From assembly GCF_988242995.1 (NCBI RefSeq), contig NZ_OZ547043.1: DNA of 64,000 bases; one strand, written 5' to 3'. The translations under genes were made by a program, and so were the position numbers. Shown here in pieces: positions 58,030-63,448 of this stretch. Each line of letters opens with the position of its first letter. Position 1 is the stretch's first letter. Below the pieces are notes generated by a model. That model was given only the letters and a program-made list of their open reading frames with translations, searched no databases and had not been told where the DNA came from.

Positions 58030-59571
<1,542 letters not shown>

Positions 59572-59752
59572 AAAAGTTTGATGCTCAAAGAATTAAACTT
59601 CGTAATGAATTACGTGTTCACTCTTGAGACTTGGTATTCATTTTTCGTCTTGCGACGTTAAGAATCCGTATCTTCGAGTGCCCACACAGATTGTCTGATA
59701 AATTGTTAAAGAGCAGTGCCGCTTCGCTTTTTCTCAGCGGCGCGGGGTGTGC

Positions 59753-60013: not shown

Positions 60014-62587
60014 TTACTGGACGGCGACAATCCGGTCTTCATTAACTTCCAGGCGAATAACTTTACCCGGAACCAATTCACCAGACAGTATTTGCTGTGC
60101 CAGCGGGTTTTCGATCTGCTGCTGGATAGCACGTTTCAGAGGACGTGCACCATAGACCGGATCGTAACCGTTCTCGCTCAGCAGTTTCAGCGCCTCGTCA
60201 GAAATGTGGATTTCATAACCACGTTCTTCCAGACGTTTGTACAGACGTTTCAACTGAATCTGCGCAATCGACGCAATGTGCTGTTCACCCAGCGGATGGA
60301 AGACCACCACTTCATCGATACGGTTAATGAATTCCGGACGGAAGTTATGGCTTACCACACCGAGCACCAGCTCTTTCATGTGCGCATAATCCAGTTCACC
60401 GAAGCGTTCCTGAATCAAATCGGAACCGAGGTTAGAGGTCATAATGACAACCGTATTACGGAAGTCGACCGTTCTCCCCTGCCCGTCAGTCAGACGCCCA
60501 TCATCCAGTACCTGCAACAGAATGTTGAAGACATCCGGATGCGCTTTTTCCACTTCATCCAGCAGGATGACGGAATACGGACGACGACGCACCGCTTCGG
60601 TCAGGTAGCCACCTTCTTCATAACCGACATATCCCGGAGGCGCACCAACCAGACGAGACACCGAGTGTTTCTCCATAAACTCGGACATATCGATACGGAC
60701 CATCGCCTCGTCGCTATCAAACATAAAGTTCGCCAGCGCCTTACAAAGCTCAGTTTTCCCCACACCCGTTGGGCCGAGGAACAGGAATGAACCAATCGGG
60801 CGATTTGGATCCGCCAGCCCCGCACGGCTACGACGAATAGCGTTAGATACCGCATCAACCGCTTCGTTCTGACCAATAACGCGATGGTGCAGCTCTTGCT
60901 CCATACGCAGCAGTTTTTCGCGCTCGCTTTCCATCATGCGAGAAACCGGAATCCCCGTCCAACGCGCCAGCACTTCAGCAATTTCGGCATCGGTCACTTT
61001 ATTACGCAACAGACGCATAGTTTTGCCTTCGAGCTGCGTTGCGGCTTCCAGTTGCTTTTCCAGTTCCGGGATTTTGCCGTATTGCAGTTCAGACATCCGC
61101 GCCAGGTCACCCACACGGCGAGCCTGTTCAATAGCGATTTTCGCCTGTTCCAGTTCCGCTTTAATGGTCTGTGTACCAGAAAGCGATGCTTTCTCTGCTT
61201 TCCACTCTTCTTCTAACTCGGAGTACTGACGTTCTTTGTCGCTCAGTTCTTCGTTGAGCATATCCAGGCGTTTTTTACTGGCTTCATCAGACTCTTTCAT
61301 TAACGCCTGTTGTTCCAGTTTAAGCTGGATGATACGACGATCGAGTCGGTCGAGTTCTTCTGGTTTTGAGTCGATCTGCATACGAATGCTGGATGCTGCT
61401 TCATCGATCAGGTCGATGGCTTTATCCGGCAGCTGACGGTCAGCAATGTAGCGATGAGACAACGTCGCCGCTGCAACAATTGCCGGGTCAGTAATTTGCA
61501 CATGGTGGTGCAATTCGTAACGTTCTTTCAGGCCACGCAGAATCGCAATGGTATCTTCAACAGAAGGCTCGGCAACAAACACTTTCTGGAAACGACGTTC
61601 CAGCGCAGCATCTTTTTCGATGTACTGGCGATATTCGTCAAGCGTCGTGGCACCTACGCAGTGCAATTCACCACGCGCCAGCGCCGGTTTCAGCATGTTT
61701 CCGGCGTCCATTGCGCCATCGGCTTTACCCGCGCCGACCATGGTATGTAATTCGTCGATAAACAGGATGACGTTGCCTTCCTGTTTGGCAAGATCGTTAA
61801 GCACGCCTTTTAAACGTTCTTCAAACTCACCGCGATATTTCGCCCCAGCCACCAGCGCGCCCATATCCAGCGCCAGTACGCGGCGGCCTTTCAACCCTTC
61901 CGGCACTTCGCCGTTGATAATACGCTGCGCCAGACCTTCAACGATGGCAGTTTTACCGACGCCGGGTTCACCAATCAGTACTGGGTTATTTTTAGTACGA
62001 CGTTGCAGCACCTGAATGGTACGGCGAATTTCTTCATCACGACCAATCACCGGATCGAGTTTGCCCTGTTCGGCTCGTTCGGTAAGGTCGATGGTATATT
62101 TTTTCAAAGCCTGACGTTGGTCTTCAGCACCTTGATCGTTCACGCTTTCACCTCCACGCATTTGTTCAATCGCTTGAGTAATGTTGGCGGTGGTCGCCCC
62201 TGCTGCTTTCAGGATGTCGGCCAGCGTGCCGCGAGACTCAAGTGCCGCCAGAACGAACAGTTCTGACGAGATAAAGTTATCACCACGTTTTTGCGCCAGC
62301 TTGTCGCAAAGATTAAGAACGCGCACCAGATCCTGTGATGGCTGGACATCACCACCAGTACCTTCAACCTGCGGTAAACGATTTAATGCCTGATTGATAT
62401 CTGTGCGCAACTGGCCAGCATTTATGCCAGCGGATGTTAATAAAGGACTAACCGAACCCCCTTCCTGATTCAGCAGGGCGCTCATTAAATGAAGTGGTTC
62501 GATGAATTGGTTGTCGTGCCCGAGTGCAAGTGATTGGGCATCGGCAAGAGCAAGCTGGAATTTATTAGTAAGACGATCCAGACGCAT
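60014..62587 (-). CDS. clpB: AAA+ disaggregase chaperone ClpB
   Basis: Start at [11 protein letters not shown] (857 aa); two nucleotide-binding domains (GEPGVGKT and GPTGVGKT) with coiled-coil middle domain. Confidence 0.93.
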
Positions 62588-62626
62588 AACTCCTCCCATA
62601 ACGGATCAAAGTTGCTACTGGAGATT

Positions 62627-62654
62627 AAATGAGGTCATCCCTCAATTATTCAAG
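62627..62654 (-). promoter_or_regulatory. sigma32 (heat-shock) type promoter of clpB
   Basis: Minus-strand CCTTGAA-N14-CCTCATTTAA resembles the sigma32 consensus, about 35-60 nt upstream of the clpB ATG. Confidence 0.55.
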
Positions 62655-62716
62655 GTTATTGACCAGATTAATGTGAAAAGAAAATCACGCGTACCGGATC
62701 GTCTTGATTCTTTAGG

Positions 62717-63448
62717 TTATATCAGCCAAATGAAACTTGCCATACGACCGGTGGTCTTGTCGCGACGATAAGAGAAGAAAGTCTCATTTTCCGTATATGT
62801 ACAACGGTCGCCGCCGAAAATTTGTTCAACACCAACGCTCGCCAGACGCTGCCGGGCAAGCTGATAAATGTCCACCAGATACTTATCACCATGCTGAATG
62901 AAAGCTGTACTCGCTTCGGCGTCTACTGCCATAAACGCCTCGCGAACCTCCGCCCCCACTTCAAACGCGCGTGGACCAATTGCCGGCCCTAACCAGGCGA
63001 GAATATTTTCTGGATTATCAGCAAAACAGGAAACTGTCTCTTCCAACACGCCTGCGCACAGTCCACGCCAGCCAGCATGAGCGGCGGCGACTTCCGTTCC
63101 CGCTCGATTGCAAAACAGCACAGGGAGGCAGTCGGCAGTCATCACTGCGCAAACCGTGCCGGGCGTATTGCTATAAGAGGCATCTGCTCGTTTTGAGGCA
63201 TAAGGTTCGCCAGTAAGCTTAAGCACATCTTTGCCGTGTACCTGCTCAAGCCAGACCGGTTTAGAAGGCAAATTGCCCGCAGCAAAAAGTCGCTTGCGAT
63301 TCTCCTCAACGTGAACCGGGTTATCGCCACAATGAGCACCGAGGTTGAGCGAGTCATACGGGGGCAAGCTCACGCCGCCGATACGAGTAGAGCTACAGGC
63401 CGCAACACCTTTTGGCAGCGGCCACTGCGGGACAATCAGCTTACTCAT
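62717..63448 (-). CDS. yfiH: YfiH/DUF152-family protein (peptidoglycan editing factor)
   Basis: 243-aa ORF; start overlaps rluD stop (ATGA). Confidence 0.88.
   Translation of the reverse strand: MSKLIVPQWPLPKGVAACSSTRIGGVSLPPYDSLNLGAHCGDNPVHVEENRKRLFAAGNLPSKPVWLEQVHGKDVLKLTGEPYASKRADASYSNTPGTVCAVMTADCLPVLFCNRAGTEVAAAHAGWRGLCAGVLEETVSCFADNPENILAWLGPAIGPRAFEVGAEVREAFMAVDAEASTAFIQHGDKYLVDIYQLARQRLASVGVEQIFGGDRCTYTENETFFSYRRDKTTGRMASFIWLI

Follow-up and report, generated by a model that had tools for sequence, protein, structure and literature searches.

The 129-bp gap between yfiH and clpB (62588-62716 of the window, by which we mean the whole 64-kb stretch of DNA analysed here) most probably holds two nested, co-directional units, both of them already described: the sigma-32 heat-shock promoter of clpB and the gene for the small RNA RyfD. 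We put the probability of this reading at roughly 85%. Sigma-32 RNA polymerase would recognise CTTGAA/CCTCATTT and start near 62619, so that the clpB mRNA would have a leader of some 32 nt, and RyfD would be transcribed from a housekeeping-type promoter of its own, TGaTATAAC, and would end 21 nt inside clpB. Since the RyfD gene (62709-62567) encloses the sigma-32 elements (62654-62627), the heat-shock promoter is nested inside the sRNA gene. Both elements were known before and there is nothing new in the motif itself, the heat-shock promoter being a classical one and RyfD being annotated. The locus does offer a correction, namely that a short intergenic gap need not exclude another element: here there is room for a whole sRNA gene that shares its DNA with a stress promoter and a start codon, and whose own promoter is tucked into the terminal codons of the preceding gene.

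The stretch from 62400 to 62900 is 100% identical to many E. coli chromosomes; 5425 of 5426 complete genomes contain it, with yfiH and clpB as its annotated genes. For comparison across species, we searched one genome per species with a degenerate pattern for clpB codons 1-11, which yielded 120 loci (L002-L121), mostly from Enterobacterales. In about 115 of the 120, clpB is immediately preceded by yfiH, and the gap measures 119-135 nt in nearly all loci, even at YfiH identities of 55-60%. The gaps of the outgroups Psychrosphaera, Ferrimonas, Alteromonas and Photodesmus are quite different, ranging from 34 to 420 nt.

An in-frame ATG further upstream (62597-62599, minus strand) was considered as the clpB start and rejected, as it falls within the Shine-Dalgarno sequence and is replaced by TTG in, among others, Serratia and Photorhabdus. 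Because this upstream ATG is unconserved and lies inside the Shine-Dalgarno sequence, the comparison indicates that the RefSeq start at 62587 is the real one. RefSeq also carries a second clpB product, ClpB80, with an internal start at MG1655 2733729 (about 62143 of the window, minus strand). On the 3' side of clpB, the clutter of open reading frames at about 58030-59700 (minus strand) is accounted for by the 16S rRNA gene rrsG with its leader, a region for which a known RNase III site has been reported at MG1655 2731278 (about 59692 of the window). The features of the locus are collected in Table 1.

Table 1. Features of the yfiH-clpB region, in window positions
Feature	Position	Strand	Remarks
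yfiH (pgeF) CDS	62717..63448	(-)	Stop codon TAA 62719-62717; RyfD promoter in the terminal codons
-35-like element ATGGCA	62738..62743	(-)	Weak (4/6), putative assignment; 16 nt upstream of the RyfD -10
Candidate extended -10 of RyfD, TGaTATAAC	62716..62724	(-)	TG 62724-62723, TATAAC 62721-62716; overlaps the yfiH stop codon
RyfD sRNA, 143 nt	62567..62709	(-)	Holds the sigma-32 promoter and the clpB leader, Shine-Dalgarno sequence, AUG and codons 2-7
RyfD 5' arm, AAGACGAUCCGG.ACGCGUGAUUU	62682..62705	(-)	In the MFE and centroid folds
Sigma-32 -35, CTTGAA	62649..62654	(-)	CCTTGAA from 62655; single pattern match
Inner hairpin UGAGG-GAUGA-CCUCA	62630..62644	(-)	Lies across the sigma-32 spacer and -10
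Sigma-32 -10, CCTCATTT	62627..62634	(-)	CCTCATTTAA = 62634-62625; 14 nt after the -35
Anti-Shine-Dalgarno, UCUCC	62620..62624	(-)	Just upstream of the predicted sigma-32 start
Predicted sigma-32 start	62618..62620	(-)	From promoter geometry only; leader of about 31-33 nt
clpB Shine-Dalgarno sequence, GGGAGGAG	62590..62597	(-)	Read from the sequence; partner of the anti-Shine-Dalgarno
RyfD 3' arm	62570..62594	(-)	Part of the Shine-Dalgarno sequence, clpB AUG and codons 2-6; predicted fold
clpB CDS	60014..62587	(-)	857 aa; true start MRLDRL, ATG 62587-62585

The sigma-32 promoter of clpB

A previous, sequence-only reading of this gap had proposed a heat-shock-type promoter on the minus strand, and its core, CTTGAA..CCTCATTT, does lie exactly at 62627-62654; the 129-bp length given there for the gap, counted between the yfiH TAA and the clpB ATG, is also right. 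Sigma-32 promoters have a consensus of CTTGAA at -35 and CCCCATNT at -10, separated by a spacer of 13-15 nt. The clpB element matches the -35 at 6/6 positions, has a spacer of 14 nt (62648-62635) and matches the -10 at 7/8 positions, the one mismatch falling in the C-run. Unlike a plain consensus promoter, its spacer and -10 also form a hairpin in RyfD RNA.

When both strands of the 64-kb window were searched with the pattern CTTGAA-N13-15-CCNCATNT, this was the one match, as against a mean of 0.04 in shuffled versions of the window (at least one match in 4 of 100 shuffles). The strict pattern recurs in 90 of 103 distinct yfiH-clpB gaps of other Enterobacterales. CTTGAA is present in every one of the 89 gaps that bear RyfD and in 12 of the 14 that lack its 5' arm; 81/89 and 9/14 of these, respectively, have the strict form CCNCATNT at 13-15 nt, and 89/89 and 10/14 a looser form. 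The proposed sigma-32 assignment is therefore consistent with the sequence and with how it is conserved. Between the end of the -10 and the clpB ATG there are 39 nt; with a start 6-8 nt downstream of the -10, the leader is predicted to be about 31-33 nt long, in good agreement with the earlier estimate of a start about 30 nt upstream of the ATG. The native clpB promoter has been employed as a sigma-32-dependent promoter (PMC5507356), and CTTGAA-N14-CCTCATTT is the already-known sigma-32 heat-shock promoter of E. coli clpB.

The RyfD gene and its candidate promoter in the end of yfiH

The sequence-only reading had also held that the gap left little room for anything else, and that an sRNA annotated there would derive from the clpB leader and not be independent. 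These claims do not stand. The annotated RyfD gene (b4609; MG1655 2734153-2734295, equivalent to 62567-62709 of the window) spans nearly the entire gap, starting 7 nt past the yfiH stop codon and ending 21 nt into clpB. Rfam family RF02768 (Ysr155/RyfD) matches 62706-62568, which takes in the first 20 nt of clpB, over model positions 1-140, with a score of 125.3 bits (gathering score 42, E 1e-28). The RyfD 5' end precedes the predicted sigma-32 start by about 90 nt and is itself a start site: Table S2 of Kim et al. 2012 (PMC3415461) gives a start site at the annotated ryfD 5' end, with no flag as internal or upstream. The site is found in three data sets, namely the 5'-triphosphate-enriched set of Kim et al., that of Cho et al. 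and the 5'-triphosphate set of RegulonDB, two of which rest on 5'-triphosphate enrichment (PMC3415461). The Klebsiella pneumoniae orthologue, 143 nt in length, likewise has a start site (PMC3415461).

At the other end, the Term-seq data of Adams et al. 2021 (PMC7815308) place a very strong 3' end at 2734153, that is, at 62567, in three conditions. This end has no U-tract. A Rho-dependent origin is not supported, the bicyclomycin ratio at this end being just 1.28 (PMC7815308), with no clear Rho dependence. The hairpin at 62644-62630 was terminator-like in a scan and was rejected as a terminator, since RyfD reads through it to the strong 3' end. Just 3' of RyfD (62566-62553, minus strand) there is an A/U-rich single-stranded stretch, AAUAAAUUCC, with an AA|AUU that resembles the preference of RNase E/G; this could be an entry cut that precedes trimming to the helix. 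The codons in this stretch are not unusually conserved.

Given these ends, it is highly improbable that the sigma-32 promoter is the sole start in the gap and that any sRNA is a fragment of the roughly 30-nt clpB leader. RyfD does lie on the clpB strand, overlap the full leader and end in the first clpB codons, and such overlaps are often leader-derived, as has been discussed for Ysr155 (PMC3672283). However, at 143 nt it begins about 90 nt upstream of any sigma-32 start, at a 5' end that is a start site in three data sets (PMC3415461), and an RNA running from the sigma-32 start to the 3' end would be no more than about 53 nt long, without the helix that protects RyfD. Moreover, Ysr155, the Yersinia RyfD, was seen by Northern blot and is expressed regardless of temperature and hfq (PMC3672283).

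A candidate for the promoter of RyfD itself is the extended -10 TGaTATAAC, the last base of which lies exactly 7 nt before the RyfD 5' end. A sigma-70 promoter scan of 62400-62900 listed none; this one was missed because position 6 of its -10 is a C, the usual final T being absent. The element was spotted by eye and stays a candidate, backed by its conservation and by the published start sites. The motif TGN[TG]ATAA[CT] is present in 83 of the 89 loci with the RyfD 5' arm and in none of the 14 without it: 83 loci have both -10 and arm, 14 have neither, none has the -10 alone, and 6 have the arm with a near-variant of the -10 motif.

Conservation extends to the codons at the end of yfiH. Among the 89 arm-bearing loci, the penultimate codon is NTG in 87, even where the amino acid differs; NNA (the rare ATA, AGA or CGA) is the last codon in 86; the stop codon is TAA in 87, followed by CCT; and the Ala codon in the -35-like element is GCA in 84. 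Third positions of the codons within the promoter spacer vary freely in these loci. Judging from this pattern, the last nine yfiH codons (62716-62743) bear the imprint of the RyfD promoter, and coding alone does not explain their conservation. This conserved candidate extended -10 fits the RyfD 5' end exactly. RyfD is co-linear with the clpB leader and start codon, and so is not spatially independent, yet it is a separate primary transcript.

RyfD might instead be a stable processing remnant of rluD-yfiH read-through RNA, guarded by its long closing helix. The yfiH stop codon and the RyfD 5' end are only 7 nt apart, with no terminator between them, so any read-through must enter the RyfD region. 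The two RyfD ends fall a little beyond a helix of about 24 bp, which is what exonuclease trimming would give, and an RNase G mutant reportedly accumulates clpB mRNA, RNase G having been implicated at the clpB 5' end. We nevertheless consider this origin improbable: 5'-triphosphate enrichment captured the 5' end where it is annotated (PMC3415461), a conserved extended -10 stands at the right distance from it and is lost along with the 5' arm, and the region is absent from a table of known and top putative RNase III sites (PMC5371410). Excision of RyfD by RNase III, suggested by the long closing helix, was rejected, as the two ends overshoot the helix by 4 nt and 3 nt and the 5' end is triphosphate-enriched, the site again not being among those tabulated (PMC5371410).

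Fold and conservation across lineages

RyfD is predicted to fold with a minimum free energy of -52 kcal/mol (z -5.6), and its closing helix of about 24 bp pairs RyfD nt 5-28 (62705-62682) with nt 116-140 (62594-62570). RNAalifold, run on a structure-blind alignment of 90 sequences, returned three helices: AAGACGAUCCA/UGGAUCGUCUU, GAGG/CCUC and the anti-Shine-Dalgarno/Shine-Dalgarno pairing UCUCC/GGAGG. The first of these spans 11 positions, and in none of the 90 sequences is a pair broken at the first 10 (alignment columns 12-21), and UCUCC/GGAGG is intact in 100% of cells. Over the three helices, 99.5% of cells are paired, compared with 37-56% when the partners are slid. Double changes amount to 10 cells at 3 pairs, compared with 0.8 in shuffles, in sequences that are phylogenetically related; 7 double changes fall in GAGG/CCUC (GC to AU, in the Xenorhabdus group). 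Most changes in the helices are A-to-G in the 5' arm, which preserve a G-U pair. The covariation is therefore modest, and the helices draw their support mostly from conservation and G-U-compatible changes, which is supportive and not decisive.

Stronger evidence for the helix than this covariation comes from clpB itself. Synonymous sites in clpB codons 2-7 are identical in 84 of the 89 arm-bearing loci, whereas codons 8-9, just outside the helix, vary freely; in the arm-less loci, 12 of 14 have synonymous changes in codons 2-7. The predicted folds differ in the same way, with a mean of -51.9 kcal/mol (z -6.4) for arm-bearing and -26.4 kcal/mol (z -1.6) for arm-less loci. It should be noted that the arm-less class of 14 gaps was defined by a regular expression and is imperfect, as three of its members (L014, L088 and L085) still score above the Rfam threshold, at 54-65 bits. 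Their score comes from a conserved 3' half and an alternative upstream arm. In two of them, L014 (Klebsiella sp. BIGb0407) and L088 (an uncultured Cedecea sp.), the RyfD promoter and 5' arm have been replaced and the 3' half retained; in this variant region, about 115-170 nt upstream of the clpB ATG, yfiH contributes another segment, CCGGGCGCAUGG, that can base-pair with UUAUGCGUCUGG around the clpB start.

Lineages without the sRNA allow the two elements to be told apart. In Providencia, Moellerella, Morganella and Rosenbergiella, Rfam gives no match to RyfD, and neither the 5' arm nor the extended -10 is present. These same four genera retain CTTGAA-N14-(G)ACCTCAT at an unchanged distance from the clpB ATG. 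GAGG, in turn, is retained in 86/89 arm-bearing and just 3/14 arm-less loci, and CTCC in 88/89 and 4/14. Because the sigma-32 motif is retained where RyfD is absent, the promoter is selected independently of the sRNA. From this distribution, GAGG, CTCC, the 5' arm and the extended -10 belong to RyfD, and the heat-shock promoter is conserved in its own right.

It follows the same lines that the conservation of CTTGAA...CCTCATTT can hardly be ascribed to RyfD RNA structure (the CCUUGA/UUGAGG and GAGG/CCUC hairpins) instead of promoter function. Both hexamers do fall within predicted RyfD hairpins, and the compensatory change of GAGG/CCUC in the Xenorhabdus group turns the -10 into CCTTATCT, as a structural constraint would have it. 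However, the lineages that lack both a RyfD match and the 5' arm keep the promoter motif and lose GAGG and CTCC, and the literature treats the promoter as sigma-32 dependent (PMC5507356).

A possible link between promoter choice and the translation of clpB

The nesting of a heat-shock promoter inside RyfD suggests a way in which the two units could be functionally related. Transcripts from the RyfD promoter, and any read-through from yfiH, would have the clpB ribosome-binding site locked, GGAGG being bound by UCUCC, and the AUG and codons 2-6 by the 5' arm. Such locked transcripts would be trimmed to the base of the helix, leaving stable, ProQ-bound RyfD. Transcripts from the sigma-32 promoter would begin 1-2 nt beyond the anti-Shine-Dalgarno and far beyond the 5' arm, and would thus be translatable clpB mRNA. 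In such a scheme, the choice of promoter would decide whether sRNA or ClpB is made from the same DNA, a gating that we consider possible at somewhat less than even odds. We hold a little more tentatively still that the RyfD gene as such is a promoter-selective translational gate, and that its promoter and 5' arm, GAGG and CTCC, and the frozen synonymous sites would be acquired or lost together in Enterobacterales.

The probability of being unpaired is predicted to be 0.02 for the AUG in the long RNA from 62709, compared with 0.4-0.7 in sigma-32-type leaders, and for the Shine-Dalgarno sequence 0.13 in the long RNA, compared with about 0.15-0.2 in the short leaders. The masking structure is predicted at about -52 kcal/mol in the long RNA and, in sigma-32-type leaders, is a weak local hairpin of -7 to -9 kcal/mol. 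The modelled contrast between long and short leaders is thus clear only for the AUG and for helix stability; the Shine-Dalgarno sequence would be mostly paired in both. The weak hairpin of the short leader (62588-62619, minus strand), AACUUUGAUCCGUUAUGGGAGGAGUU, holds the Shine-Dalgarno sequence, and 88% of its cells pair in the 90 sequences, with little covariation; it could behave in a thermometer-like manner. For the long RNA, a thermometer was rejected, the helix of -52 kcal/mol being far too stable to melt at 42 C.

Since RyfD has reported partners in trans and also binds ProQ, a role in cis is not required to account for it. A specific pairing of RyfD with the lpp 5' UTR has been reported from TRIC-seq, in Salmonella RyfD ranks with the most abundant sRNAs bound to ProQ, and overexpression of RyfD alters biofilm formation and swarming. 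RyfD might accordingly act purely in trans, for example on lpp, with the overlap with clpB reflecting genome compaction and having no effect on clpB expression. We regard this as less likely than not: the strongest constraint falls on the pairings with the clpB Shine-Dalgarno sequence, AUG and codons 2-6, including the frozen synonymous sites, and any clpB transcript with a long leader would be expected from the modelled structure to take the RyfD fold. Roles in cis and in trans are not exclusive and may coexist.

If the gate exists, a single DNA segment would act at once as sRNA gene, heat-shock promoter and translation initiation region. Gating of this kind would account for the conservation and abundance of RyfD, for the frozen synonymous sites in the first clpB codons and for basal read-through not yielding ClpB outside stress, and it would provide a simple example of start-site choice controlling translation. 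The literature that we found on RyfD describes it only as close to or overlapping clpB; the sigma-32 promoter inside it, helices covering the ribosome-binding site and a promoter-selective gate for clpB are not described there.

With respect to known systems, the sigma-32 promoter of E. coli clpB was reportedly mapped in 1991 by Kitagawa et al. and by Squires et al., and the element in the window is identical to it in locus and sequence, with no difference, being the known element itself. RyfD, which is said to go back to Kawano et al. in 2005 and to have been annotated since that year, is present here with a full-length match to RF02768 (RyfD/Ysr155), yfiH-clpB synteny and ends that agree with the annotation and with Term-seq. 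In ROSE and fourU thermometers, for example that of ibpA, base pairing hides both the AUG and the Shine-Dalgarno sequence of a heat-shock gene. The RyfD fold is predicted to sequester the same two elements of a heat-shock gene but, unlike in thermometers, relief for clpB would come by way of another start site and not through melting. Finally, RyfD resembles the 5'-UTR-derived and ORF-internal sRNAs in having a strong 3' end a few codons into an ORF on the same strand (PMC7815308); unlike them, it does not share its start with the main regulated promoter of the gene, but begins at a promoter of its own, about 90 nt further upstream.
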